A stretch of DNA of 64,000 bases from Candidatus Latescibacterota bacterium (lineage in GTDB: Bacteria > Krumholzibacteriota > Krumholzibacteriia > WVZY01), in assembly GCA_963791045.1 (NCBI GenBank), contig CAWBQK010000006.1, positions 1 through 64,000 of the forward strand. Direction: 5' to 3'. The position numbers were made by a program, and so were the translations under genes. The notes beneath the pieces were generated by a model that saw only the letters and a program-made list of their open reading frames with translations, was not told where the DNA came from and did no database searches. Positions 4,948 through 33,203 of the stretch are shown one piece after another (the first letter of the stretch is position 1; every line of letters starts with the position of its first letter).

Positions 4948-6642
4948 GTGACGACCGCCCCCGCCGGACATGCGACCGACCGCGTCGAGGTCGCCATGAG
5001 CGAGCACGACCGTCGTGACTGGCAGCGCCACCCGGTGGACGTTGCCCGCCTCGTGCTGCGGTTGTCGGTGTTGTGCCTCGTTCTCGGGATCACCGCGGCA
5101 TTCCCCACAGCACTCACCAACCTGTCGGCGGACCTCGTGCGCATGTTCGTGCGGATGCCGCTCGGCCTGCGCTATCTGTTGGTCGGCATCGCGCAACTCG
5201 CGGTCGTGCTGATCCCAGTCGTGGTGGTCGGTTGGCTGCTGAAGCGTCACGCCCGTCGGGCCGCTGCCCTGGTCGTCGGCGCCGGTGTCCTGGGCGGGCT
5301 GATCATGCTGGTGCTGACCGATTGGCTCCAACGCGCCGCGCCGCCCACCGACATCGGTGAGCTGCCGTCGAATTCGTTCCTGCCCACGGACGTTCCCTCC
5401 GCGGCCTACCTGGCAGCACTCGTCGCCGGGGCGACCACGGCGTCGCCGATGATGGAGCAGCAGTGGCGGAAGATTGCATGGGCTGCTGTGTGGACGCGCT
5501 GCGGTCGTGCGGGTGTTCACGGCGACCCAGGCGCCGGTCAGCATCGCGGTCACGCTGGCGCTCGGCAGTGTGATCGGGTCGGCGGCGTTGGTTGCGTTCG
5601 GTTCGCCGCAGCGGCGGCCTGGCTCGGCGACGCTCCGGGCCGGGCTCGCAGCGGCGGGATTCCGTGTCGACGTGCTCGGTGACGAGTCCAGGGCGGATGG
5701 TGTCCGTGGCTACCGCGGGAGATCGAGCGGCGAGCTGATCGATGTGTGGTTCCTCGACCAGGACGATCGCGACGCCGAGGTGTTCGCTCGACTGGTGCGG
5801 TCGATCCGCGTCCGCGACGTCGACGAGCAGCGCCTCTCGGTGTCGCCGCGCAGTCGTGCGGCACAGCTTGCGACGTCGACGTCGATGACGTGGCGCTCGG
5901 GGGCGCGCGTGCCCGAGGTGCTCAGCGTCGCTCCGGCCGATCGGAACAGTGCGATCGTCGCCACCCGAGCGCCGGCTGGCACCGTGCTCCGAGACGCGAT
6001 GCCCGAGGCGGTCACCGACGCTGCGCTCGACGATCTCTGGACGCAGGTCGAGCTGCTGCACACGTCACGTATCGCACATCGATCGCTGAGCCTCGACCAT
6101 CTCTACCTCGACGGCGACACGGCGACGGTCGCCGGGCTCTACACCGCGATCCTCGCATCGAGCGCTGAGGCGCGAGCGGTCGACCGTGCGGAGTTGCTCG
6201 TTTCGACGGCGCTCGTCGTCGGTGTGCCGCGGGCACTGGACGCGGCGGTGCGATCGGTGCCGAAGCCGGATCTGGTCGACACCTTGGCGTTCATCCAACT
6301 CCCTGCGCTGCCACCGCACGCCCGCAAGGACGCCAAGCGGCCGAAGCACTTCGTCGACGATCTGCGAACCCGCTGCAGGAGCGCCTCGAGGTCGAGGCGG
6401 TCGAACTCGCCGAGCTCGAGCGCATCAGCCTGCCGAAGATCCTGACCTGGGTCGGGTTCGCCGTGCTTGCGTTCTTCGTACTCGCACTGGTGACCAACTG
6501 GTCGGCGATCGTCGACACGATGTCGGACCTCGACCCGATCTGGATCGTTCCGATCCTCGTCGTGACACTGGTCGGCACCGTCGGTGGAGCGATGTCGCTG
6601 TCGGGTTCGGTCGTGCGCCCGATCGCACTGGGCGAAGCGACC
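4948..6642 (+). CDS. Membrane protein with kinase-like and lysylphosphatidylglycerol-synthase/flippase-like domains; frameshifted and truncated at the junction
   Basis: Multiple TM segments, kinase-like HRSL region, then TM segments ending abruptly at ...GSVVRPIALGEAT where the composition changes. Confidence 0.7.
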
Positions 6643-6905
6643 GAAAGCCCCGCTTGAGTCGGTATAGCGGCGTCGCCCGACAGCACTCCTGCTTTCTGAC
6701 GTTCACTCTCCACCAGCAGGAGATTGAGGGAGGTGAACGAGATTACCTTGAGGTAATCGTCTGTCTTACCCAGGCTTATGCAGCAAGGGGAAGAGCAGCA
6801 TATTCAGTGCGGTTGGCACTTAAGGTTTTGCGCTGATTTATCGAGAACGGCGCCTCTCGGCTCGCAGTCCGGAGTCAACCTTTTCCGTCGATACCTATCA
6901 TCCCC
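6643..6905 (-). ncRNA. ssrA: tmRNA, 5' ~260 nt only (3' end missing)
   Basis: Minus strand starts GGGGATGATAGGTATCGACGG. Resume context TTAAGT-GCC and tag frame 6817..6776 encode ANRTEYAALPLAA*. No T-arm/CCA before the junction. Confidence 0.92.
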
Positions 6906-18499: not shown

Positions 18500-20993
18500 T
18501 CATTTAAGCATCAAAAACCACTCTTCCAGGAGGCTCTCCGCTGGTTTTCCGTGAATTGAGATGGATTTATCGTGCAGTACTGCAGGTGCGTAATAACCCT
18601 GGGAGATGATTCCTGAAACCCAGCTCTTTTTTGGAGCAGTCGATAAAAATACCTGGTAAGCAAGGGCTTGTTCAGAAAAACCAGTTTCATGATCGAACAC
18701 AATTGGGGCAGGGGTTGTGAAGGTTGAGATTGGATAACAAATATCGTCGATCTCAAGGGAACAAATTGGATTGTAGCCAGATACAGATGGATATTGAACC
18801 CGCAATATCAGTTGCTTGTTGTTGGGTTTCAGCCAGTTTGACCAGAATGTGTTTACTTCTTCATCCAGAGATAGATCTGCTGCATTGATTAGTTCTTCCA
18901 GGTTGATATCTGGCGTAATGATCAACCCGGGATCCCAATTCAGGTGAATTTGGTCAACATGTTCAAAATAGCCGGGGATTGAATTTTCAGAAGGAAGGGA
19001 CATGGTCCAGGCAATTGTTCCGGAGAACCGGGCGTTGACATCGTTCATAATTTCAATCCAACGGAGACCTGAATCTGCAGGAACTCCAGATGGATCACCA
19101 TTAGCCAATCTGCCGCCTGGTAAAGCCGGCGATAGCCAATCTCCGCCAAGGATAAGCATATCAGCTCCCTGGATCTGGGCAGTATCAGCGAAATGGATCG
19201 CATAAGCGTGATATTGATCAAACCAGCAGTTCCACCAGCTGAAATCAAGCGGGGCATCAGTCCACCAATCAGCAGGATCCGCAGGGAAATGCGGTTGAGG
19301 ATGTATTGCGACCTTGAGCCCCTCGGAAAATGCTATGGTTGACATCGTTCTCAGATCAATCCAGAGTGGATCCTGATTTGGATTGGGCTCGATCACAGGG
19401 GGACTTTGATGGGTAAAACTCCAGGTTGGAGTCAATATGATCCAATTGCTATTCAGTCCAGCGATTTCTGGGATTGCCTGTGACATTTGAACCGAATCTG
19501 CAGGTTTGCTGCCCGTCATGAACTCGATTCCGGTTATGAAATTTTCTCCTCTTGGTGTGATGGCTGGTAAGGCGGAAGTCGCTGCAAAAGATGATTCCAA
19601 CCAGGCCCAGTCTTCTACGCTATCCGCAATATATTGGGCCTCCGCGCTGGGAGATACAACCCGACCCTCCGGAAAAGCTCCGGCGGTTGCAGAATCATCA
19701 GCTATACCACATTCACCTTCTCTGCAATATCTATAAGTCAGATCTGACAGGATATCAAAGGGAGAAAACAGGATAAAGACCCAGTGGTTTGAGGCAATTT
19801 CTGTCATGGGCAGAGGTGTTGTCCATCCATATGGATTAAATTGAATGTAGACAATTTCACCGGCTGGTGTGTTCTCCGGTGTCCACAGATCAAAAGTTAT
19901 TGAATCCTTCGTTCCAGATTTCCAGGTCAATACTTCATCGGAAAATTGAACTGGATATTCAGGGACGATAAACCTTCTCATGAAAAATGAGCCATCATCA
20001 CCATGTTCTGCATTCCAGAAACCATCACCAAGGGTGTATTTATAACGGATCTCAGCACCTACCGGCAGGGATAGAATAATTCCGTAATGATTGTCACCAG
20101 CATAGGTCAGACGGGGCATTCTGGATGGGATCGTATTCATACCACCCGGCAAGGTTCCCAAATGTATTGCCGAACTGATAAAGGTTTCCAACCAGCCGGA
20201 CGCTGTTCTCCGGGGTGCCAATGGGAACAGTGACCAGAAATGTCACATCTACAAATTCCCGGGGAGCAATTGATAAATTAGCCTCCGTGTTGGCCTGGGA
20301 AGCGACTTCTGCTCCTTGTTGGATCTCCTGATAAGATCCATCTGGTGCAAAAACCACAAGATTATGAACGCCAGGGGGGACACCGGGCAGCATATACGAG
20401 CCAGAGGCAGTGGTGAAAGCCTGAACACCACCGCCACTCACCAACATTCCCGGTACTGGTTCTCCGGTGGTTAAGTCACTGATGATCCCAGAAATCCTGC
20501 CTGGTTCCGGCCAGTAATAAGCGGTATCAGACCATTTACTGACAACATCCCTGATTTCGAGTGGATTGTCTGCCATAGCCATTCTATATCGAACTTGTTC
20601 ATCGTCTTGTGTGTGTTCGATCATAGCGTATTGGTTTTGGCGTGTATAGCGATATTTGATGATGGTATGTTGGGGTACAGTTATTGTGGTCTGGTATACC
20701 AGTCCTTGATCAAGATTGTTTTCGCCGAGCGCAGGTTCTAACGGATGGGCTGTTGCGTTGACCCCAAGGCCGGTTACTTCATCCAGTGTGCTTAGATAAA
20801 TGATCTCACCCTCTGGCGTATTCAATGGAATTTGAACAAAGAATGTGACTTCCACCATCACTTCAGCTGAGGAGTCAGTGGTCCGATCTAGGAAGAATAT
20901 CTCCCAATGAAATACCACCACAGCTGCTAAGGGCAAAACTCATCAAGAAGAAAGCAAGAATTAATAGACCGTGTTTGAGCGGGAAACCGACAT
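18500..20993 (-). CDS. Large lipoprotein with CBM20-like modules, a carboxypeptidase-regulatory-like domain and a TIM-barrel (GH113-like) domain, frameshifted
   Basis: Lipobox LSSC near the 5' end, repeated VTF.V.VP..TP / IKYRY / IRYKY modules, C-terminal NWIILTP...WFDQY...GKPAE. Confidence 0.6.
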
Positions 20994-20994
20994 A

Positions 20995-21752
20995 TCAGAT
21001 CTCCGTTTTAATGAGGTGAATGAGAATTTCAAGGTTCAGTATTTTTCGAATAGGAATCTCAATTGTATTCTTCGCCGTGAGTTTGATCATAAACATTCCC
21101 CTTTCCACCGAAATACCTTCTATAAAATCCCAGGGAATTTCCACTTTGGGAAGAATGAGTTTTTCCTTCGAGATCGATACATCACCAAAAGGGATAGTTT
21201 TTCCATTTGAAAAAGCTTGTGACAGTTTGGGTTGTAGTGTTTTATAGATGTGTTTTTTGATGATCTTTTTCAATCCATCTGATCTTTGATCCCGGGATGG
21301 ACATGTAATGGGCGGTATTGTTCTGAATATAGGATCAGAATTGTTTTTTGCGCTTATTTGATCGAAGTAAAGATTTATTTATCGAATAACTGGTGATCCC
21401 GAGATCTCATCCCATTTTAAATTCGCTTTCTTCCTGGTGGAAAATGGAATTCTAATCCCCACGGGTAAACATTGATCCAGGTATGGGCTCTTTTCAACCT
21501 TTTATATGTATACAGGAGCAGAAAAATGACCAGGATCCCAGAGATAAAAAACCAGGTTCTTCCCCAGGCTGCTGCAGCTGCTGGTCCAAAAGAGGAATAG
21601 CCATACAAGGTCCGCCACAATCCATAGACAAGCGGGGATAGAACGACAAGGATCAGGGGAAGAAAAACCCGAAAAAAATCACGCCAGGTTAAATCCTGGA
21701 GGTGGTATTCAGAGATTGGAGTTTCTTGATTGGTTTCTTTCATAACAAACAA
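20995..21752 (-). CDS. Hypothetical membrane protein, frameshifted
   Basis: Two TM helices followed by a PH-like beta region (FGDVSISKEKL...IPWDFIEGISVERG). Confidence 0.55.
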
Positions 21753-21856
21753 AACTGGTCAATTTTAGTCGATTGCTTAGATTATAGACCAGTTTAGGTT
21801 AGTTTGCACAAACAATAGGACAGCATTCTAAAGGGTGCTGTTCCTGATGAGATATA

Positions 21857-22402
21857 TTATGCTGGTACGAAATATACATCAGTTGGTTGGAGTTTGCTGT
21901 TTCTTATGAATTGGGGTTTGAGCTTCATCCCGATCCAATCCAGGCTGGCTTCCATGGGATCCACTCCCATCAATCGACTGAGAAGCAAGGTGTCAACTCC
22001 TTCAAACTCAACCTGGATAAGCACAAAAGGAGTTTGATCCAGAAAGGCTTCAGAACCGAAATGACAGACTGTAAAGGCGTGAATTTTGGCTTCATTTTCT
22101 GTGATATCAATCCAGTTGGTTTCATCGCCTGAATACATGTCATGACCGCGAGGGGTTGCGTAGGTATATCCGGAGACCGGATCCTGGTTAGCGAGGATTT
22201 TCTTATTGCTCAAACCTGCGAACCAGGGGCTATCCTGGCCATAGGAGTGCAGGTAAATAATGCTGTAGGGCTGTTCGATCTGGATTGGTGTCATTTCCTT
22301 CAACCAGGCCAGTGCTTCTGGTGTTATTTCCCTGGGAAAAGGTAAATTGTGAACGATCGTGCCCCCCAGGGTTTCTGCTTGTTTGTAAGGTAATTTTGTC
22401 AT
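21857..22402 (-). CDS. DUF35 family (ribbon + OB-fold) thiolase partner
   Basis: HSYGQDSPWFAGL, IHAFTVCH, PFVLIQVEFEGVDT, IGMKL; directly downstream of the thiolase. Confidence 0.85.
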   Translation of the reverse strand: MTKLPYKQAETLGGTIVHNLPFPREITPEALAWLKEMTPIQIEQPYSIIYLHSYGQDSPWFAGLSNKKILANQDPVSGYTYATPRGHDMYSGDETNWIDITENEAKIHAFTVCHFGSEAFLDQTPFVLIQVEFEGVDTLLLSRLMGVDPMEASLDWIGMKLKPQFIRNSKLQPTDVYFVPA

Positions 22403-22411
22403 CGTTCCTCC

Positions 22412-23777
22412 TTATTCCTTTTCCAGAATGCTGACTGTGACATAAGTTCCCGTGCCGGCATGGGAGTGGATGGCGCCTTTCTGGGCATCTTTCACCTGCA
22501 GGGTTTCATCATCGAAATGTTTCTTGATGGATCCCTGCAGCTGCCAGATAGCGAAGACCGCCTGCATTAATCCTGTGGCACCAACGGGATGACCACAGGC
22601 GATCAACCCGCCAGAAGGATTTACTGCACAGACAGGTTTATCTGGCAAGTTTCAATCCATAGTCAATTCCCGGTAAGAAAGCTTTTCCTGAAGCAGCAAA
22701 AGGACCACCTTCTCCATATCGGCAGAGCCCCAGGTCTTCATAGGTTTGGATTTCACTGGATGTGTACGCGTCATGAAGTTCAACAAAATCCAGTTCATCG
22801 AATGGGATCATGGATCCCAGCATGTTTATAGGCCATATTCCCTGCTGTCCGACCTGCCCTGAAGGAATGGATTCCCGGGATAGCGGGTTCCATGATCCCA
22901 GAGTTTTTTATAATACTTCATGGTATCCTCAGATTCTTTCTCTTGTTCGGTCGCATAATCATCTGATAAAAGTATCGTAATCAACATGGGGACGGTCAGC
23001 CATACGCATGGCATCTGTTCCCCTGCCGATTCCGGTGACTTTCACCAGAGGGCGGGGGATCTTTGCGCCAGCTTTTTCCAGTTTCTCTATTCCTTCTTCT
23101 GATGCCAGAATAGTGGCTGCAGCACCATCAGACATGACACAGATATCCAGGCGGGTTAGAGGCCAGGCAACCATTGGCGCATCCCGTACATCCTGGATAG
23201 AGTATCGATTTCTTTTCTGGGCATAGGGATTATGAAAGGCGTTGATATGGTTTTTTACGCTGACATGAGCCATTTCTTCCACGGTTGTGCCAAATTCTTT
23301 CATATGGCGGGTAACCATCATGGCGTAATATCCTGAATAAAATCCCCCCACCGGGTAATCAAAAGATACATCTGATGCCAGGGCGATAAATTCATTTCCT
23401 TTCCAGGTTTCAACATGGCTCATGGTTTCAAAGCCATAGGCCGCCACGACTTCCATATGGCCGCTGGCGATTGATTTCCAGGCTTCCTGGAAACATAAAC
23501 CGCCTGTCGCTCCTCCTCCTTCCACGCGGTGGCTGGGTTTTGGGCACAATCCCAGATAATCTTGGGCCATAATGGCTGCCATCAGCTGACGTGTAAAGTG
23601 ATCGGAAAAATAAGAGGCTACAGAGCCATCAACGATCTCTGTGAAATCTGGAAAACTTATTTCCAGATCATCGATGGCATAATCGTAGGCTTCTTTAATC
23701 ACAGCCTGATAGGTCTTGTCCGGCCGAGCTTTTGCAAACTTTGAAACTCCTCCGGAGATGGCATAGACAGGTCTCAT
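22412..23777 (-). CDS. Thiolase (SCP-x/archaeal type), frameshifted
   Basis: RVEGGGATGG, KNHINAFHNPYA, CVMSDGAAA, ELHDAY, NPSGGLIACGHPVGATG. Confidence 0.9.
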
Positions 23778-23949
23778 AGATCCACGCTCCCTTCGTCAAT
23801 AGTGACGGGTAGATGATAAAACTACGCGGGCACACATTATCAGCAATCTCTGCTGGGTATTACGTGTGAAGACGTGCCAATCTATTGACACCAATAAATA
23901 ATGGATTGTTGGGGGGTTGCCCCGCGGGATGAAGCACTACTGAAGTCGC

Positions 23950-24327
23950 TTAACTTTCTGCAGGATTCTGATCATCAGTTTCTGAGATCTTGGGTTCTTC
24001 TGGCTTTTGATCCAGGAGCTGGGTGAGCCGCTCCAGGAAGAGAGTCAAACAGGTCTTCTCCGCCAATCTTCGGAAAACCTTCTTTGGTCAAGTCTACGAA
24101 GTTCATTTAATTCTTCAAGTTCTGCTTCGCTGCATCAATCGCTGTGGTAAATATTGGATTTCACTTACACCCTTGCGGATATTTTGCCACCAGGTCGATT
24201 TGATGATAGAGCGCATGAATTTCCCCAGCTTTCGTCCTGCCTCGATCATGCCTTCTGGTCCGAGAACCAGAATGCCAATGATCAGAACAAAAACAATCTC
24301 AAGAGGGCCAATTCCAAAAATATTCAT
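23950..24327 (-). CDS. TatA/TatB family translocase subunit, frameshifted
   Basis: [24 protein letters not shown] followed by an amphipathic helix. Confidence 0.8.
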
Positions 24328-24782
24328 GTCGGGTTTACTCTACATTCTGATTTAGATTTGCTGCAATGATTGAATGATTTCATTCTGACGATCGGCAAGA
24401 GACCCAAAACGCCATTTACAAATCTGGGCGCACTGTCTGAGCCATAGGTTTTTGCCAGTTCTACAGCTTCATTGATGGCTACTTTTAAGGGGATATCATC
24501 GGCAAGGGCAAATTCCCAAAAGGCTATCCGGAGGATATTTCTGTCAATGACTGCTACTTGGTCAAGCGGCCAGTCAGGGGCATGATCAGCGATAAAATGA
24601 TCCAGTTCGCTTCGGATGGGCAGTACACCCAGCACGATCGATCGGAAGAAATGGATCAGTTCATCATCCAGATCGGAATCTGCCATTCTTTCAGTTAACA
24701 CCGTACCTACCGGGTGATCCGTGATATCCAGTTCATACAAAGCCTGGAGGGCAATCCCCCGCGCCCGGGTGCGGTCCTTCAT
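24324..24782 (-). CDS. nusB: Transcription antitermination factor NusB
   Basis: [33 protein letters not shown]...FVNGVLG. Confidence 0.95.
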
Positions 24783-24789
24783 AATGGAT

Positions 24790-25167
24790 TCAGTCCTCAG
24801 GGACCAGGTTGTTTTGATAATCAATATCCTCAATATGCACATTGATTGTTCCGACTTCCATGCCAACCATTTTCGAGATCGCTACCGAGACTTCTTCCTG
24901 GACCTTTTTGCTGGTTTCGCGGATATTGGCTTTATCTGTCAGAACCAGATGTAGATCTGCGTACACAGAGCCATCTTCTTCAATGGTGATTTCAACCCCA
25001 TCGTCACGATTGCGGCTGAATAAGGTATTGACGCTGCTGGGGGTCAGCGCCAAGCGGCTGACTCCTTCCACCTGGAGAGCTGTTAAGCGAATGATTGTTG
25101 ACAGAACACCTGGGGCGATGGTGGTTTTTCCCGGGGGACGTTCAGTTGTTGCCATAATTTCTCCCAA
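24790..25167 (-). CDS. Asp23/Gls24 family protein
   Basis: [15 protein letters not shown]...[14 protein letters not shown]; rpmF-asp23-nusB context. Confidence 0.88.
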
Positions 25168-25280
25168 TGTATAGTTTATCCGCTCACTTGCGGCTTTTTA
25201 TTATAACCTATGCTGATTAAAACACAGACGGCCGTGATAGTCACGGCCCGTCTGATTTTTTGACTGAGAACGTGGATTAT

Positions 25281-25457
25281 TTATTTCGCGATAACTTCAC
25301 GCCCGCGATAATAACCGCAATGGGAGCATACCCGATGGGGCAGGCGTTTTTCGCCGCAGTTGCTGCACTGAACAAACTGTTTCGGTTTTAACGCATCATG
25401 AGCGCGACGGCGGTTCTTGCGTCCCTTGGAAATGCGTTGTTTTGGTAGAGGTGTCAT
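25281..25457 (-). CDS. rpmF: 50S ribosomal protein L32 (absent from the ORF track)
   Basis: Manual translation MTPLPKQRISKGRKNRRRAHDALKPKQFVQCSNCGEKRLPHRVCSHCGYYRGREVIAK*. Confidence 0.96.
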   Translation of the reverse strand: MTPLPKQRISKGRKNRRRAHDALKPKQFVQCSNCGEKRLPHRVCSHCGYYRGREVIAK

Positions 25458-25522
25458 ATCATTAACTCCTGCTTGTTTTCACACGAATAATCGTGATAAT
25501 TACTCTTTTTTACAGCAGGTAG

Positions 25523-25551
25523 ATTATACGGAGTAGGGGGGTTTAAGTCAA
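25523..25551 (-). promoter_or_regulatory. Sigma70 promoter of rpmF
   Basis: TTGACT-17 bp-TATAAT. Confidence 0.8.
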
Positions 25552-25583
25552 GATGATTGCCTGAGGTAAAAAATCACTCTCGA

Positions 25584-27928
25584 TCACTGAGCAGAGAAAT
25601 ATACAGGGTCCAGATGATGAATTTTCCAACCATAATCCCCTAATAGGGGCGTTTCCTGGGAGCAGGAATCTGGCAGGAATCCTGGCGGCGCGCCATATCC
25701 GGCATTGGTGAACATCCACCAGCGCAAGGTTTGTTCTTCCACACCTAGCGGCTGGAGGATGGTATAAGCTGCCCTGCAGAGCAATTCGGCATAGCGGTCT
25801 ATGTCGATGGTTTCGGGATCTGGCTTTTCAGCCAGGTCCCAGGCAAATACACCGGGCTTTCCCCGGGTGTAGAGAAAACGCACCCGCTGGCCGGGAATTA
25901 GATGTTTACCGATTGCTGCCAGCTGAGCAGCCGCCCTGGCAGCCGGGGAGGGCACTTTGTACTCTTCCAGGGGGCGGCTTATTTTCTGGGATATCAGCAG
26001 TTCTTCCAGAGGGATTTTCCGCTGCCGCAGAGCTGATAATCTGGTCTTGGAGCAGGGCATGCACCCGGGGCAGCTGGTCTGCCAAATCCCCGGCATCCGG
26101 GGCATCTGCCAGCAGATCGAGCATTTCTCGCTGGATTTTCTTGATCCATTTTGAGGTGTCGTCACGCCTTAATTCGATTCCCCGCACTTTCCAGGTGCCA
26201 TTTTGGAACAGCCCGAAATAACGATTAGCTACCGGTACCCGGGGGTCCGGCCGCGAGCTCAAAAAAGCGATCCAGCGGTAAATGCCATCCAGGCTGGTTG
26301 GCAGTCCGGTGCGATCCAGGATCTCCTCCAGCAGGGGTTGAAAATCAGCGATCTGCGAGGCGCCTTCCTTCTGGACCCAGAGGCCATCAACATACATATG
26401 CAGAACCCGGAATCCCAGCTCCTCAGCGGCTTCTTTGGCCCGCAGCAGCGCTTCCCGCCCATAGGCTGTAACTGCTTCATGGGCCTCAATGCGTCCGAAG
26501 CGGGCGTTCTTGTATCCCAGGTATCCAAAACAGGTGACCAGCAGCCATTTGTGAGCTGAGGATCGGGCCTGGTAAGGCCGCTAGCGGGTATCCCTGGGAT
26601 CCATGCCGGCCAGGGCCTGTTTGAGCCGGATCCTTTTTTCAAGCAGCGGCTGCAGGGTGTCAGGGACCAGTCCGCGCTGGTCCTGGTCAATGGTCAGCTC
26701 CAGTTCAGGCACAAAAGTGCTGTTTTGGCTCCTTTTTCCGACAGTTTCCGGGGAAATGTTAAAGTGCTCCATGATGCTGGGATACATGGAAATGAAGTCG
26801 ATTTCCGCCACATTGGCATGCAGACCCGATGGTTGGCTGGTAAACCAAGCCACCCCGGTCAGCCTGGAGCAGATTGTAGGCTGATTTGGACCACTCTACC
26901 TGCTGTTTATGCCAGGGCACCAACACACCCTGGCGCAGGGCGGTCAAGATCTGCATGGAGGAAATGCCGGTTCCGGGGGAAACCCGGGCAGCCGTTTGGA
27001 TGCGCAAACTGGTGACCCGGGCCATTTCAAAAACGCCTTCCAGCCCGTAATCGTGATACATGACTGTGTTCTCTGTGGAAATGTGAATGCGCCCAAATAA
27101 ACGGGCCTGGGGCCCGCGGTAGATCACTCCGCCATAGGAATGGTAAAAACGTTCTTCCCGCCGCTCAACCTCGCGGTCGTCTTCCCGGTTCAAGGGAAGG
27201 GAGATATGGTGTTTTTCCATCAGCTGATGGAGTTTGTCAATCAGCCAGTTATCTCCCCAGACTGTCAGCAGCAGATCAGGATCATAGCGGCGGAGCAGGG
27301 CCTGCAGCTTAACCAGCAGGCCCCGTTCTTCCTGGAAGGAAAAGTTGTAGTGCTTTCCCTTTAGATGGACTTTCAGGCTGGTTGGTTCCCTGTGATCCGG
27401 ATTTGAATCAGGGACCAGGGCCATTACCAGCAGGGGTACCGTGGGGACTATCGATCTCCCAGGGGGAATCCAGGGTTTCCAGGGTTTGGATCTCACCTTC
27501 CTCGGTGGCCAGCACCCGGCAGCGCGCCAGAGGGAAAACCCCGGTTTGGGCTGCGTAGCGCAGATCAACCGAGATATCCGCATTATAATAGATCAAACCG
27601 GGAAAGCTTTTTTTCAGATTGGCTAAAAAGCCTTTCCTGGGCCAGTGGGGTCTCGGTCAAGATTTTCAGTACGGGGAGGGGTTGTTCCACAAAGAGATCC
27701 TGCTTCTCGGCGCGTGAAAGCTGCAGCGGCAGCGGCAGCGACTTCAGATGGCGCCACAGAGACCGCAGTTCGGCGCTGGGGCCGTGAACGTAGAAGGAGG
27801 TTGGGAAAGGCTGGTGCAGCCGATGACGCCTGGATTCCATCTTCGTCCAAAAACCAGAGGATCACACCCTGAACCGGATCTGGATAGATATCCAGCAGCC
27901 AGCCGTAGAGCTCATTGCTGGAGGGCAT
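25584..27928 (-). CDS. Family B DNA polymerase, PolB2/Dpo2-like (several frameshifts and one in-frame TAG)
   Basis: N-terminal GWLLDIYP...VILW, motif A EIDFISMYPSIM..NISPET, motif B KWLLVTCFGYLGYKNARFG, motif C HMYVDGLW, KVRGIELRRDD, D.DRYAELL. Confidence 0.9.
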
Positions 27929-28178
27929 GACGGAGTTCTGCAACTTCTTGCCTTAACCGGACGACTTCTTTATGTTCTTCCAGCAGCATGGACAGCAGAA
28001 AGGTTTCAAAGGGCAGCGCATGGGAGGCATAGGAGGCAGCGCAGAGATGTTTTTGGGCGGAGGCAAATAGATCATCCAGTACTTGCTGGTCGCTGCTGCG
28101 CAGGGCCCGGCGAAAGCGGGCAAAAGCGGCCCGTTCTTTCAAGAAGGTTTGGGTGATTGAGGTTACGGTTCGTCCCAT
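27912..28178 (-). CDS. Small helical PolB2-associated protein (arCOG07300-like)
   Basis: MGRTVTSIT...FRRALRSSDQ..LDDLF...PFETFLLSMLLEEHK; overlaps the polymerase start. Family assignment is from recall. Confidence 0.75.
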   Translation of the reverse strand: MGRTVTSITQTFLKERAAFARFRRALRSSDQQVLDDLFASAQKHLCAASYASHALPFETFLLSMLLEEHKEVVRLRQEVAELRHALQQ

Positions 28179-28189
28179 GAGATTTCCTT

Positions 28190-28714
28190 TTAGAGCAGTG
28201 TGAGTTGAGTGGCAGGATGATGGGGTTCAAAAACCCAGACCCGATCCGCGGCTTCCCGGATCCGGACCAGAAAAGGCTCTTCGTCGAGCTGGGGATGAAG
28301 CACGACCAGCACCGGGGTGTGGCGGGCGTTCTTTACTCAAGAATGGAGGCAGATATCCAGCAGGCGGAGGCGCTCGGGCAGGGAAGCATTTTCGTCCTGG
28401 AAGGTGGCCAGCAGGTTCAGCACCAGGGTGGGAATGCCTCTGCGGGGCGGTTCTTCCAACAGGGTGGTCATCTGATAACAGGTGAAGGCCCGCGCGACCT
28501 GGATCCGCTCCAGGGCGGTGTAGAGGAGCAGCTCCCGGCGCCGGAGCTCCCGGTTGAGGCTCAAGACGTCAAAACGATTGCCCCCATCCAGCACACGGAC
28601 CGGACCGGTTTGGGCCAGCTCGGCAATGAACTGCAGGGAAGCCTTCCGCTGAAAGGCGGAAGGGGCAATCAGCAGCTGCAGGGAAGGGGTATGAGGCAGG
28701 GTGATCAGATCCAT
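28190..28714 (-). CDS. Inactive RecA/RadA-fold protein (iRadA/ImuA-like), frameshift near 28337
   Basis: VRVLDGGNRFD, LERIQVARAFTCYQM, no Walker A; continues in another frame to ...AADRVWVFEPHHPATQLTLL*. Confidence 0.78.
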
Positions 28715-28807
28715 AAGCCAACCTTATCAGGTTGGCTGATGGATGACTATCGCCGTTTGGCTGAAATTAGGGATGAAAAAAGGGCTACCCCAAAGGGGGA
28801 AGGACGA

Positions 28808-29218
28808 TCAGGCGGTCCACCGAGAAAAATCCCAGTCGGAAAGGATCTTGCGGAGCTCCAATTTGCTGCGCAGGCCAAATTTGCGTTTGGCGTTGCGCAG
28901 ATGGGTTTTCACGGTGGCCGGGGAAATGATCAGCTGGTCAGCGATTTCTTTGTTGGTGTAGCTCAAGCAGGCCAGGGCGGTGATCTCTTTTTCTCGGGGA
29001 GTGAGAGACTGCCAGGTTTTCAGGTTCCTGGTGGCTTCCTGGCGGTGCTGCAGGGCAAAAATCAGCATCCTTTGCCCCACTTCGTTTAGGGGCTGTTTCT
29101 CTTCCTCGGCCAGACGGGAAAGAGCCAGGCTGAGAGGCTGATCCAATTTGACAAATTGGGCCGGCTGAAACAGGTACTTGAGAGAGTCCAAAACACGGGT
29201 TGGAAACATATTTGCCAA
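28808..29218 (-). CDS. LuxR-type HTH regulator without a receiver domain
   Basis: SLTPREKEI...YTNKEIADQLIISPATVKTHLRNAKRKFG. Confidence 0.9.
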   Translation of the reverse strand: MANMFPTRVLDSLKYLFQPAQFVKLDQPLSLALSRLAEEEKQPLNEVGQRMLIFALQHRQEATRNLKTWQSLTPREKEITALACLSYTNKEIADQLIISPATVKTHLRNAKRKFGLRSKLELRKILSDWDFSRWTA

Positions 29219-29227
29219 GTATTGGTT

Positions 29228-29243
29228 TAGAACATTTGTTCTA
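29228..29243. promoter_or_regulatory. LexA (SOS) box
   Basis: TAGAAC-ATTT-GTTCTA matches GAAC-N4-GTTC and sits 1 nt downstream of a -10 hexamer. Confidence 0.85.
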
Positions 29244-29244
29244 C

Positions 29245-29273
29245 ATTATACACAAAGAGAGTCTGGTTGGCAA
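29245..29273 (-). promoter_or_regulatory. Sigma70 promoter of the LuxR-iRadA-PolB2 cassette
   Basis: TTGCCA-17 bp-TATAAT. Confidence 0.85.
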
Positions 29274-29341
29274 GAGGGTTTTGGTAGGGGATGGCGGAGG
29301 GAGACTGGGGGATTTGGGGAAGAGCATATGTGTAACACGAA

Positions 29342-29458
29342 AACCAGCTCTTTGAGCGGACACCGAAGCAGTTCCGGTGGTAGTCGAAAAGGCTTATTCT
29401 GATGCTTCATTTCGACTGCGTTTGCTTTGCGGGCTGCACTCCGCTCAATGATTTGGTT
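29342..29458. repeat. REP/MITE-like nested inverted repeat
   Basis: TTGAGCGGA/TCCGCTCAA and GTAGTCGAAA/TTTCGACTGC arms, closed by AACCA/TGGTT. Confidence 0.6.
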
Positions 29459-29487
29459 AGCTGATTTCTATTGCTATGGATTCAATA

Positions 29488-32010
29488 TCAGTAGCGATTC
29501 TGCCTGACGCTGGATGTGATCGTTATCCCAGAGCATGGGGTGGTAGTAGATATTGCGCCATAGATCTGCCATATCGATGTAGTGAGGGTGGTAGGCATGG
29601 CCGGATTGGCCGGTTGTATGAATACTGAGTGAGTTGATAAATTATTAAGGTTGACGATCATCCGCATGGATGGCAGCCAATCGACCACGTACGGATTGTC
29701 AGGGTCCCAGCCAGTAGCATTGACGATTTCGTTGCCGCCAGCGGTTGGAAAGGGTCCGCGATTAAAAAATTATTGACAAATGGGAAACTGCTCATGACCT
29801 GATTTTGGAAAGTGATAGTATGAAGTTCTCCCCATTGCCAGGCGGTGGGATCCTTCCCAATCCTTTTTAAGTTCACGGTAGGATTCTTCAAAAGTCAAGT
29901 TGAATATATCATCCATGATTTCCCTTTCTGGTGTTGAAGAATCATTCCACCAGGGATTCTCAGGTTGAGTGACAAGCTGGCGAATGATTTCTTTGCTGGT
30001 TGAACCAACTCCGACATTGAAATCATCAGGCAGATTGTCCTGTAAGGTGTTGTCTATCAGGTTCTGCCAAAAAGTCATGAAAAGGGCTGCAGGTGCTGAA
30101 TCCAGATCTGCCTGAAAATCCCAGCCTACTGAGGATATCCTGGGCAGCTGTCAGATCCGGGTCTGAAAAATCAAGTTTCATTATCTCTGGGACAAGCACA
30201 GGAGCCATCTGGTCATAATTATCCCCTTGCATGGCTTTAATCATTGCGATGCCAATCGGTTTGGGAGCTTCGTCCAGCATGTTGACAATCCGCTGAGCTC
30301 GGAAGCCGCGGTTCCATTCTTCTGTGATCAGGTAAGGATAATCTGGACCCACTACTGCATTATTGGCGGTAACAATATATCCTGAGGGGGGGTTAAAGAA
30401 TAGGGCAGTTCTTCAAAGGGGATATAGCCCTGCCAATCATAATCCCCATTCCATCCTGGTACAGGGAGCATGCCGTCATGGCCTTCCACGCGGATAGGGA
30501 TATTCCCGGGCATCTGGTAGCCAATATTTCCTTCCATATCTGCATAGATCAATTCTGGGGGACAGCGAAATGGGATGCTGCTTGCCGGAATTCTTCCCAG
30601 TTCTCGGCCAGATTGATCTCCCACATGGCGCAGAAGACACAGCTGGGCTCCAGGGCGGTCCACCTTAAGGCCAGAGCGTAGTTTTCAGGGATTGCCAGTC
30701 CGGTTGCTTGGTCAAAATCATCCAGACCATAAACAGCATCCGATGACCGGTCCATGGCTGGTCAGGTAGACCTGGTGTTCGATAGGATCATCCACCGGCG
30801 ATCTGGATCACTTCTACGATCGATTCCATTTCTACCCAGCCATCAGGTGTCAGGTACTGAGTGGGATGGTCAGGATTGATCTTTTCGATATAGAGATCCA
30901 TCACATCTGGACCCACATTGGTTAAACCCCAGGCAATACGATCATTATGCCCGATCACAACACCAGGAACACCGGCAAAAGAGAACCCAGTCACATCCAT
31001 CTGACAGTCCTCGGTTTTTTCCAGGCAGTGCAGGCCAACCTCATACCAGATAGACGGCATCTGGGATCCAAGGTGGGGATCATTCACCAGATAGGGTTTT
31101 CCGGTATCGGTCAGGTCTCCGCTGATGGCCCAGCTATTTGAACCAATCCCTTCCTGACCTCCCCCGGTGATCTGGTCCAGATCTGCTCCGAGGCTTTGAA
31201 TGGATTCCATTGATTTGATAACTTCCAACCAGATGGATTCGGATAGATATAAAGGGGTGAGATCTGGGTGATCATATCCTTGATCTTCAGAATCATCTTC
31301 GATTGAAGGTCCGGGTACGATATAGGGATGATCTTCTGGGTATGGTGGATAGATGAACTCTATCTGATTGCTAGGTAGGGTCTTCAGCAATTTGGCCCGA
31401 TCGATCTCTGAATCCAGATTGGCGCGTAGATCCCAGGCCATCGCTTTTCCCCAGGTCAGGCTATTTATAGGTGTCCATGGGGAGCTTCATAATCCGGATT
31501 TATTACACCCAGAAAGAGATATTCCAGACTCAAATTTGATCCTTCTCTTTCCGAGATATAGCATTAACTCCTGCTGAATATGCATCCAGAACAGCCAGCT
31601 CAGTCAGGACCTAGTAGATCCAGTTCCTGTCGGGCAACTCTTTCCCATCCCAGGGTTCTAAGAAATTTATCTGTTTCCAGCATGGGTTTCCCAACTAGTT
31701 CGGCCAGCCTGCCTGCTCCCATATGGCGCCAAAAATCCATCTGCCAGAACCGGTCCTGGGCATGGACATATCCCTGGCCGAAAAACAGGTCATGGTGAGT
31801 GGTCGCATAGATCTGGGGAATTCCATAGCCATCCCGGTAAATCCTGACCTAGCTGTCCAGGCCATTGATCTGGATCTCTCCGTCAACTACGGGAAAGGAT
31901 TTCAATGCGGTTCTACGGATAAGAGGAGGGGCGATGAGGGCAGTGATCGCTCCCAGGAACACTAAAATAATGACTATGCCAACTAGGACCTTCCCGATCT
32001 TTTTAGCCAT
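29488..32010 (-). CDS. Penicillin acylase family (Ntn hydrolase), heavily frameshifted
   Basis: N-terminal TM, GSNSWAISG autocleavage site, NDPHL...PSIWYE, GHNDRIAWGLTN, WQWGELH. Confidence 0.9.
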
Positions 32011-32040
32011 CGGGACCCTCCTCCTGACATTAAATAGGAA

Positions 32041-33203
32041 TCACAATAAAGGGCTTATCATTTCTTGGTTATTATCTATAAATAACACCAGTTTGACTGA
32101 ATCAGTTATGGTTTTTACTCTCCCAGAGTCATTCTCAAATAAGCTCTCAATAAAAGGATCCAGTTCTCCATCCAGAACAGCTTCAGTATTACCCATTTCA
32201 AAATCTGTGCGGTGATCTTTGACCATATGATACGGATGCAGTACATAGGAACGGATTTGACTGCCCCATTCTGCTTTCTGGTATTCCCCCCGCAGCTCTT
32301 CGATTTTTCCTTTTCTTTCTTGCTGTTTCAACGCCAGCAGCCGGCCTTTAAGCACTTTCAGGGCCATTTCTCGATTCTGAGTTTGAGAGCGTTCATTTTG
32401 ACAGCTGGCAACAATTCCGGTAGGGATATGGGTGATACGGACCGCGGTATCATTTTTTTGTACACTCTGGCCGCCTGCACCTCCGGATCGGAAAGTGTCG
32501 ATCCTCAGGTCATTGGGATTGATATCGATATCATTATCATCATCAACCTGAGGGAGGATTTCTACCAATACGAATGAAGTGTGCCTTCGGTTTGATGAAT
32601 CAAAAGGAGAGATCCGCACCAGACGGTGGACACCTTTTTCTGATCGCAGATAACCGTAGGCATAGAGCCCGTTGATCGAGATAGTTGTGCTTTTTATTCC
32701 GGCTTCTTCGCCCGGTGTAAGATCCAAGGTTTCTGCTTTAAAACCTCTTTTTTCTGCCCATCGGAGGTACATACGCTGAACCATTTCTGCCCAATCCTGG
32801 GCGTCATTCCCCCCTGCACCAGCATGGATGGCGAGCAGGGCATCTCCCCGATCGTATTCTCCTGATAGCATGGCATCAAATTCTCTTTTTTCGATTTCTT
32901 CCTGAAGGGCAAGGACTTCCTTCTGAAGGTCATCTTCTAGGCTTTCATCAGCCATTGCTGCTAATTCCATAGCATCATCAAGGCGCTCTTCAAGGGTTAC
33001 CCAGCCTTGCTAATTCATCCTCCAGGTTTGCCAGGGTTTTCATGATCTTCTTGGCTCGATTCTGGTTATCCCATAAATCTGTTGCCTGGGATTCCTTTCT
33101 CAATTTTTCAATCAGAGTTTGTTTTCCGGCTACGTCAAAGACGCTCCAGTAAATTCTGGATCTTCTTCTGACTTTCTACAAGGATGCTGGTTAATGATTC
33201 CAT
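32041..33203 (-). CDS. prfB: Peptide chain release factor 2 with programmed +1 frameshift
   Basis: ISPF and GGQ motifs, WGSQIRSYVLHPY; first exon MESLTSILVESQKKIQNLLERL* ends in CTT-TGA-C at 33140..33134. Confidence 0.96.

Follow-up and report, generated by a model that had tools for sequence, protein, structure and literature searches.

We identify a bacterial PolB2 mutasome operon of archaeal origin, which encodes iRadA, PPB2 and the family B DNA polymerase PolB2, in an Anaerolineales chromosome represented by the first 64,000 nucleotides of contig CAWBQK010000006.1 of assembly GCA_963791045.1 (this whole stretch is hereafter called the window). The operon is preceded by a luxR-type gene, and the promoter of that gene carries a perfect LexA-type palindrome. 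The preliminary description of this DNA had listed a promoter with a LexA box, a LuxR-type helix-turn-helix (HTH) protein, a Walker-less RecA/RadA-fold protein, an 88-residue helical protein and a family B polymerase. Its parts list and coordinates are correct, and all five elements were found on the minus strand, at 25584-29273. It had interpreted the cassette as a PolB2-based analogue of the ImuABC mutasome wired into the SOS regulon. The identity of the polymerase and the conserved operator speak for this proposal, but the idea of one promoter driving all four genes is probably wrong, and the wiring is probably that of a two-step circuit through the LuxR-type protein. We consider it somewhat better than an even bet that LexA controls the luxR-type gene and that the LuxR-type protein controls PolB2. 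What we infer in this cascade is the binding of LexA, the activating role of the LuxR-type protein, the sites of transcription start and the translesion activity.

The core proteins of the mutasome

The genes for iRadA, PPB2 and PolB2 follow one another in this order on one strand, and the order is likewise kept in related loci. An archaeal-type PolB2 with a small partner and an inactive RadA-like gene, as proposed in the preliminary description, is supported by the MGRT arm of PPB2, the Walker-less RadA/Rad51 fold of iRadA, and the YVD sequence at motif C of the polymerase. Among the PPB2 orthologues, 71 of 74 start with MGRT, and the window protein shares this hallmark. When the iRadA family profile was compared with the PDB, RadA was matched at 1e-6, and the 28 best matches are RadA, Rad51, RAD51 paralogue or DMC1 chains. 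Consistently, the predicted iRadA model (predicted local distance difference test score, pLDDT, of 87) matches DMC1, RadA and RAD51 paralogues at template modelling (TM) scores of 0.62-0.75. A Walker A motif (GxxxxGK[ST]) is present in none of the 70 iRadA orthologues. The C-terminus of the window iRadA, QLTLL, is a predicted beta-clamp motif; the pattern QLx[LFY][LF] occurs within the last 12 residues of 28 of the 70 orthologues, and a looser pattern in 56.

In the polymerase, the YVD of motif C aligns with the DTD of the archaeal PolBs, with the first aspartate of DxD lost and the second kept. Y(V/I)DG stands at this position in 105 of 108 full-length homologues; of the same 108, 101 keep motif A, 107 motif B and 105 motif C. 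DxE was found at the aligned ExoI position in none of 10 aligned sequences, and Pfam DNA_pol_B_exo1 does not match an intact orthologue at E values up to 0.1. The proofreading exonuclease site thus appears to be lost, mainly on the absence of the motif, as the N-terminal alignment to the solved structures is weak. Together, iRadA, PPB2 and PolB2 would form a damage-tolerance (translesion) complex, the translesion activity being presumed from the work on Sulfolobus Dpo2.

The LexA-type operator

Below, G000 denotes the window's own assembly, C6 the contig that holds the window, and L-numbers related loci. The operator begins 2 nt past the -10 hexamer of P1, the promoter of the luxR-type gene, so that it spans the expected transcription start. 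The LexA box of the preliminary description is conserved among the related loci: 67 of 69 evaluable ones keep it with at most one mismatch. In the 400 nt that precede the first cassette gene, 55 of these 69 loci have a perfect AGAAC-N4-GTTCT, 12 a version with one mismatch, and 2 neither. By our own arithmetic, the chance expectation of the 10-base motif is about 0.007 in 52 segments of 150 nt, and the observed frequency lies far above it.

Is this motif the LexA operator of the lineage? In all five sister genomes, a similar box, AGAAC-N4-GTTCG, which departs from the strict pattern at one position, lies between the -35 and -10 elements of lexA. Because the box sits in the lexA promoter, the usual autoregulation argument identifies the motif as the LexA operator of this lineage. 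We take it to be the Gram-positive-type LexA box, as reported for Dehalococcoides. The conserved operator therein supports the SOS wiring, with LexA as the presumed ligand. In the whole assembly, strict boxes number 3, as compared to 2.6 expected; two of them fall at promoters within the 125-kb host segment.

Outside the window, in the same low-GC segment (G000, C6, 127881-127896), TTGACA and TACACT hexamers flank another perfect LexA-type palindrome of 16 nt. It lies upstream of the gene for a 246-residue predicted membrane protein (127947-128620, plus strand), which is a candidate SOS-controlled membrane or division-related gene.

The LuxR-type protein and its association with PolB2

The LuxR-type protein consists of an N-terminal two-helix region without a family match (65 residues), a NarL/GerE-type HTH and a conserved DWDFSxW tail. 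Its predicted model has a pLDDT of 87, and the HTH superposes on NarL (1je8) with a root-mean-square deviation of 0.8 Å over 58 residues. Family and fold searches revealed no receiver or autoinducer-binding domain in its 133 residues. By its predicted architecture, it is a stand-alone HTH protein, and not a response regulator or a quorum-sensing receptor. A ribbon-helix-helix N-terminus, seen by eye, is unsupported: the model gives two helices, and the fold search found no separate match. An extracytoplasmic-function-sigma-like reading of the LuxR-type protein and PPB2, which had rested on a match to Pfam Sigma70_r4_2 at 7e-8 and on the published sigma-like fold of PPB2, was likewise rejected, as the spacings of the motifs do not agree with it and the HTH has its closest match in NarL.

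The position of the box follows the presence of the luxR-type gene. We counted 70 evaluable loci, including that of the window, and accepted boxes with at most one mismatch. The luxR-type gene is adjacent in 52 loci; the box is at the luxR promoter in all 52, and within 120 nt of iRadA in none of them. Of the 18 loci without an adjacent luxR call, 15 carry the box at a consensus TTGACA/TATAAT promoter of iRadA (hereafter called direct-type loci). As for the remaining three, L048 does have a luxR-type gene, which the scoring had missed, and L051 and L068 have neither an adjacent luxR nor a box. These last two retain a spacer of the P2 type (described below), and each of their genomes encodes a full-length luxR orthologue at an unlinked position, behind a promoter of its own that carries a perfect box. 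A full-length luxR orthologue was found in none of four direct-type genomes.

We also examined 201 genomes sampled evenly across the class, of which 8 have PolB2. Full-length matches to the LuxR profile occur in 5 of the 8 PolB2-positive genomes, as compared to 0 of the 193 PolB2-negative genomes; four further matches cover only the HTH, in open reading frames of 218-286 residues. In two further PolB2-positive genomes, the neighbouring luxR-type gene is divergent and follows a box; one of these is at a contig end. In terms of this profile, the LuxR subfamily is exclusively associated with PolB2 loci.

The spacer between luxR and iRadA

The spacer between luxR and iRadA, which is 93 nt in the window, contains a candidate internal promoter (P2), a conserved upstream element and an inverted repeat. 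In 46 of 52 loci, the iRadA ATG is preceded by TAnnnT at a distance of 5-8 nt, which is exactly 6 nt in 37 of them; in the controls, TAnnnT is so placed before 1 of 51 PPB2 start codons and 196 of 5082 ATGs taken at random. GAT(T/A)G(T/C) is present at -37 before iRadA. Since none of the 46 -10 hexamers is TATAAT, P2 fits an activator-dependent promoter, in contrast to the direct-type promoters, which match the consensus. The direct-type loci place their TTGACA/TATAAT promoter at the same 6 nt before the iRadA ATG, and therefore leaderless iRadA mRNAs appear to be a habit of the family.

The upstream element, which resembles GG(G/T)TA(A/C/G)CC, is located at -74 to -78. Its 20-nt version occurs once per genome, at the PolB2 locus, in four of four sister genomes. 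The window assembly contains no further copy, which carries little weight, as only about 125 kb of the host is present.

The inverted repeat shows the marks of a conserved helix. Across 28 sequences, 82% of the cells in its 8-bp stem are paired, as compared to at most 52% in slid controls, and 21 cells are changed on both sides, a number reached in none of 500 shuffles. The helix was scored on a structure given by hand; RNAalifold, applied to the leader of iRadA, predicted no more than a helix of 4 bp (-2.6 kcal/mol). An Rfam search of 25000-30000 found no family, apart from one chance-level match (E = 0.76).

The proposed cascade and the single-operon alternative

We propose the following cascade. 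LexA would bind the palindrome over the start site of P1 and keep the small luxR-type gene off. Upon DNA damage, LexA would be cleaved, and the LuxR-type protein would be made. This protein would then bind the conserved GGnTAnCC element, some 72 nt upstream of iRadA, and activate the weak internal promoter P2, the transcript of which is expected to start at or within one base of the iRadA ATG, resulting in a leaderless mRNA. The mutasome would thereby appear later, only after sustained damage. Read-through from P1 may contribute to the expression, and the conserved hairpin may act as a translation brake on the read-through transcripts, a role in which it equally supports the single-operon alternative discussed below.

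Tentatively, and at somewhat less than an even chance, we extend this cascade to most of the PolB2-bearing Anaerolineae. In these bacteria, the mutasome would be the sole output of a dedicated two-tier circuit rather than a direct LexA target, with a LuxR activator found only in PolB2-bearing genomes, a weak P2, a leaderless iRadA-PPB2-PolB2 mRNA, and a hairpin dampening the translation of read-through transcripts. The lineages that lost luxR would have been rewired to direct LexA control.

Several observations weigh against the cascade. The window assembly, which marker genes put at 81% completeness and which looks chimeric, contains no match to the S24 peptidase and none to LexA_DNA_bind over the cut-off. 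Because the bin is composite, this may account for the missing lexA, which was found in all five sister genomes. No RNA runs matching the window sequence are listed, and two DNA runs share 0.05 of its words. P2 is too weak for the sigma-70 consensus scan, with a -35 element that agrees at only four of six positions. The strict pattern of the upstream element is present in only 26 of the 52 luxR-type loci, with looser variants in most of the others, and this candidate site could mediate repression instead of activation. Moreover, a compensatory hairpin over the -10 hexamer implies a transcribed stretch, which suggests read-through rather than a leaderless start. Finally, a terminator-like element between luxR and iRadA exists in only 4 of the 30 loci of the window's clade, and plain read-through from P1 is possible there.

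The last two of these difficulties, together with the weakness of P2, lead to the alternative of a single LexA-controlled four-gene operon transcribed from P1, which we regard as rather unlikely. In such an operon, the spacer would act at the RNA level, the hairpin would tune the translation of iRadA or the stability of the mRNA, and the LuxR-type protein would autoregulate or control other genes. The four genes are indeed co-oriented and tightly spaced, the window has no strong terminator between luxR and iRadA, and the hairpin with its compensatory changes lies just before the iRadA ATG. However, L068 and L051, which have neither luxR nor a box upstream of iRadA, have a terminator-like hairpin in the spacer and the same geometry, and their boxed luxR is elsewhere. 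A hairpin followed by a T-run separates luxR from iRadA in 15 of 22 distant loci. The restriction of the exact 20-nt element to this locus in the four sister genomes marks no wider LuxR regulon, and the TAnnnT spacing is that expected for the -10 element of a leaderless mRNA. These four points argue against the single operon.

Layout and integrity of the genes

The features of the cassette are summarized in Table 1. The overlap of the polymerase gene with that of the 88-residue helical protein, noted in the preliminary description, was confirmed and amounts to 17 nt.

Table 1. Positions of the features of the PolB2 cassette, in window coordinates.
Feature	Position	Strand	Description
Promoter P1 of the luxR-type gene	29245..29273	-	TTGCCA 29273-29268, 17-nt spacer, TATAAT 29250-29245; 11/12 in the consensus scan; layout common to close orthologous loci
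LexA-type operator	29228..29243	-	Perfect 16-nt palindrome, core AGAAC-N4-GTTCT at 29242-29229
luxR-type gene	28808..29209	-	133 residues from ATG; Pfam GerE E = 5e-15; alignment of 32 orthologues
Conserved upstream element	28776..28791	-	GGGGTAGCCC at 28791-28782, then T6; starts 75 nt before the iRadA ATG; candidate site of the LuxR-type protein
Candidate internal promoter P2	28721..28751	-	GATAGT/TAGTCA at -37/-35 (28751-28744), TG-extended TAAGGT -10 (28729-28721), 6 nt to the iRadA ATG
Conserved 8-bp inverted repeat	28716..28737	-	Arms 28737-28730 and 28723-28716, loop TGATAA; overlaps the candidate -10, ends 1 nt before the ATG
iRadA	28193..28714	-	174 codons, inactivated RadA/Rad51 fold; in-frame TGA 28339-28337; C-terminal QLTLL
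PPB2	27912..28178	-	88-residue helical protein beginning MGRT
PolB2 polymerase	25584..27928	-	About 779 codons; overlaps PPB2 by 17 nt

The polymerase gene is not a single open frame and is divided into six frame pieces. As compared to the closest orthologous locus, L004, which is 89% identical in DNA to the window locus, it has five single-base insertions (near 27830, 27617, 27441, 26828 and 26042) and an in-frame TAG at 26583-26581, where the orthologues carry TGG. Intact orthologues are 776-790 residues long. In iRadA, the in-frame TGA replaces a leucine codon of the orthologues (TTA, TTG or CTG). Single-base indels relative to L004 extend throughout 20600-33000 of the window, in a manner that resembles an unpolished long-read consensus.

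The frame breaks in the cassette are likely to be errors of the assembly consensus rather than signs of decay, because the damage is assembly-wide and the flanks are equally or more damaged. Against L004, the neighbouring acylase gene (29658-31886) has 14 frameshifting indels in 847 codons, as compared to 5 in the 779 codons of the polymerase gene; the thiolase gene (22412-23777) has 4 in 453 codons, and a 124-codon open reading frame has 5. In this 12-kb comparison, scattered in-frame stops were also found in the flanking genes. That the cassette is instead a decaying pseudogene relic, with five real frameshifts and two real nonsense codons, is quite improbable. In its favour, none of the five insertions in the polymerase gene lies within a long homopolymer, and both nonsense substitutions (TGG to TAG in the polymerase, leucine codon to TGA in iRadA) could be genuine, a point that counts against the consensus-error explanation. 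On the other hand, neighbours that are intact at L004 show as many or more frameshifts, some with in-frame stops, the completeness of the assembly is only 81%, luxR and PPB2 are intact, and the protein identity to intact orthologues is about 90%.

The polymerase group

The best solved relatives of the polymerase are archaeal PolBs (5mdn, 1e-40), followed by Sulfolobus PolB1, Pol alpha and Pol delta. No E. coli Pol II entry appears to be among the 56 PDB matches. In NCBIfam, NF004416 ("type B DNA-directed DNA polymerase") matches over the full length at 2e-122, as compared to 1e-19 to 2e-5 for the Pol II models, which match only in the region of residues 354-530. NF004416 was tried as a marker of PolB2 and rejected as not diagnostic, since controls also match it in 5 genomes, none over the cut-off.

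An exhaustive homologue search returned 860 cluster representatives at E values up to 1e-30. Among the distant full-length relatives, one with 31% identity belongs to a Thermoplasmatota archaeon, and every named protein listed as a relative of this sequence is archaeal. In four archaeal sequences that we aligned, motif C reads IVD, and the unusual motif B of the window polymerase recurs. Eight long relatives of 1240-1310 residues (P0173, P0194, P0209, P0215, P0216, P0238, P0248 and P0250) match the polymerase in two stretches, with the split at about query residue 466, just past motif B; for P0238, only the second stretch is listed, from residue 441. This interruption looks like an intein insertion.

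A grouping with Pol II or phage PolB had been considered in the preliminary description, and some sources label homologues "DNA polymerase II" or "DNA polymerase-2", but the reading of the polymerase as a Pol II of the E. coli type, or as a PolB from a phage or mobile element, with unrelated neighbours is scarcely credible, as it is contradicted by the NCBIfam scores, by the archaeal PolB, Pol alpha and Pol delta nature of the 56 PDB matches, by the synteny with housekeeping genes fixed in about 30 loci, by the PPB2 and iRadA partners conserved alongside, and by the YVD in place of an intact DTD at motif C.

Relation to known systems

How does this locus relate to the systems described before? 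The three-gene core is, as the preliminary description stated, already known from comparative genomics as a published bacterial PolB2 mutasome operon (PMC4104785, PMC11791011), and so are the term "mutasome", the archaeal origin and the link to lexA. The three-protein complex has also been modelled in print. Three papers (Makarova, Krupovic and Koonin 2014, PMC4104785; Timinskas, Timinskas and Venclovas 2025, PMC11791011; and PMC12926913, where the name is G2/PolB2) describe a PolB2 of archaeal origin that was transferred to bacteria, with iRadA-PPB2-PolB2 as the sole bacterial gene order. There, the MGRT N-terminal arm of PPB2 is key, iRadA is devoid of the N-terminal domain and the ATPase site, the first aspartate of DxD is lost, the exonuclease is dead, and the beta-clamp motifs are mostly in iRadA. 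The window locus is alike in its gene order, its MGRT arm, its iRadA without the ATPase site and with a beta-clamp-like end, its loss of the first aspartate and its apparent lack of the exonuclease site, in an operon for which the published accounts propose a role in the damage response. In contrast, the main texts name lexA as a neighbour only, and contain no LexA operators, LuxR-type gene, internal promoter or two-step circuit.

In Leptospirillum ferriphilum, according to PMC4104785, LFML04_0990-0993 (polymerase, PPB2, iRadA and lexA) form one predicted operon, in which the PolB2 core is likewise physically tied to SOS. However, lexA is inside that operon, while here it is elsewhere, as seen in the sister genomes, and a luxR-type gene comes first behind the LexA-type box. 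The regulatory wiring through this box and the luxR-type gene is possibly new. We found no paper on LexA operators or a LuxR-type gene at PolB2 operons, although the supplementary neighbour tables of PMC11791011 may list the luxR gene, and, as far as the literature was searched, nothing on how bacteria control PolB2 mutasomes.

The locus provides a testable regulatory map, made up of an operator for LexA, a dedicated factor of the LuxR type, a candidate site for this factor to bind, and a promoter for a leaderless mRNA. The lineages with the LuxR factor, without it, or with it unlinked constitute a natural experiment. To our knowledge, what is known of bacterial PolB2 mutasomes comes solely from comparative genomics and the prediction of structures; if the cascade is true, cultured Anaerolineae would be a system for the first bacterial PolB2 experiments.

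The imuA-imuB-dnaE2 system is a LexA-controlled multi-gene mutagenesis cassette with an inactive RecA-like protein and an error-prone polymerase. The present cassette resembles it in this logic only, as its parts are not homologous: the C-family DnaE2 and the inactive Y-family ImuB are found there, and a family B polymerase here. Each of the five sister genomes has one match to a Y-family polymerase. A C-family alpha subunit is matched once in three of them, twice with equal scores in one (likely an assembly duplicate), and not at all in one. Neither ImuB nor DnaE2 is evident in these five genomes, and none of the four with an alpha-subunit match has a distinct second one.

In E. coli, the late induction of umuDC is achieved by a delay through operator strength and UmuD cleavage. 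In contrast, the delay proposed here would come from an intermediate transcription factor. As with umuDC (Pol V; PMC11791011), extra regulatory layers would here restrain a mutagenic polymerase within SOS. If the cascade is true, it represents an independent way of keeping an error-prone polymerase off until the damage persists, for which E. coli relies on the late induction of umuDC and on UmuD processing.

Archaeal Dpo2 is about 150-200 residues shorter than the window polymerase. Sulfolobus Dpo2, presented in PMC7390963 and PMC8764526 as a damage-inducible translesion extender, belongs to the same polymerase group and has the same two partner genes. It differs in having IID at motif C, where YVD is found here, and Orc1/Cdc6 homologues, not LexA, are given as enriched nearby in PMC11791011.

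Host and chromosomal setting

To which organism does the cassette belong? The G+C content of C6 is 0.67 up to about 6.8 kb and 0.45 up to about 130 kb, and then 0.555, equal to that of all other contigs; the drop from about 0.67 to 0.45 occurs across roughly 300 nt, near 6600-6900. The rpmF and nusB genes of the window have second, divergent copies on C7, with 51% and 34% identity, respectively. The contig or bin thus looks chimeric, and the assembly seems to contain no more than about 125 kb of the real host. The chimeric, indel-rich nature of the bin affects any reading of gene integrity or taxonomy drawn from the window, and the assigned taxonomy and relatives of the assembly probably do not apply to the host. 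The polymerase was found in none of 40 taxonomic relatives of G000. In view of the G+C shifts and the duplicate rpmF and nusB, we do not take this count as a sign of recent transfer; because the bin is composite, and its assigned kin are probably not those of the host, the count carries no information on the true host.

The real kin are Anaerolineales metagenome-assembled genomes, in which about 30 loci (L002-L032) share the whole neighbourhood. They keep the order prfB, acylase, cassette, rpmF, asp23-like, nusB and thiolase, with 57-97% identity of the flanking proteins. Seen in this conserved setting, the cassette is a stable chromosomal resident of that Anaerolineales clade. The G+C content of the cassette exceeds that of both flanks in 18 of 19 loci examined, by 2-15 points each, which may reflect either a persistent compositional imprint of foreign origin or a bias in the composition of the proteins.

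No terminator-like element was found 3' of the polymerase gene. A near-consensus promoter (TTGACT, 17 nt, TATAAT; 25523-25551, minus strand) lies directly 3' of the polymerase stop, before rpmF. On the other side of the cassette, CTTTGAC is found at 33134-33140 on the minus strand, upstream of the body of prfB (32041-32970), and we take it to be the classic site of programmed +1 frameshifting in release factor 2; the further frame breaks nearby are probably assembly noise.

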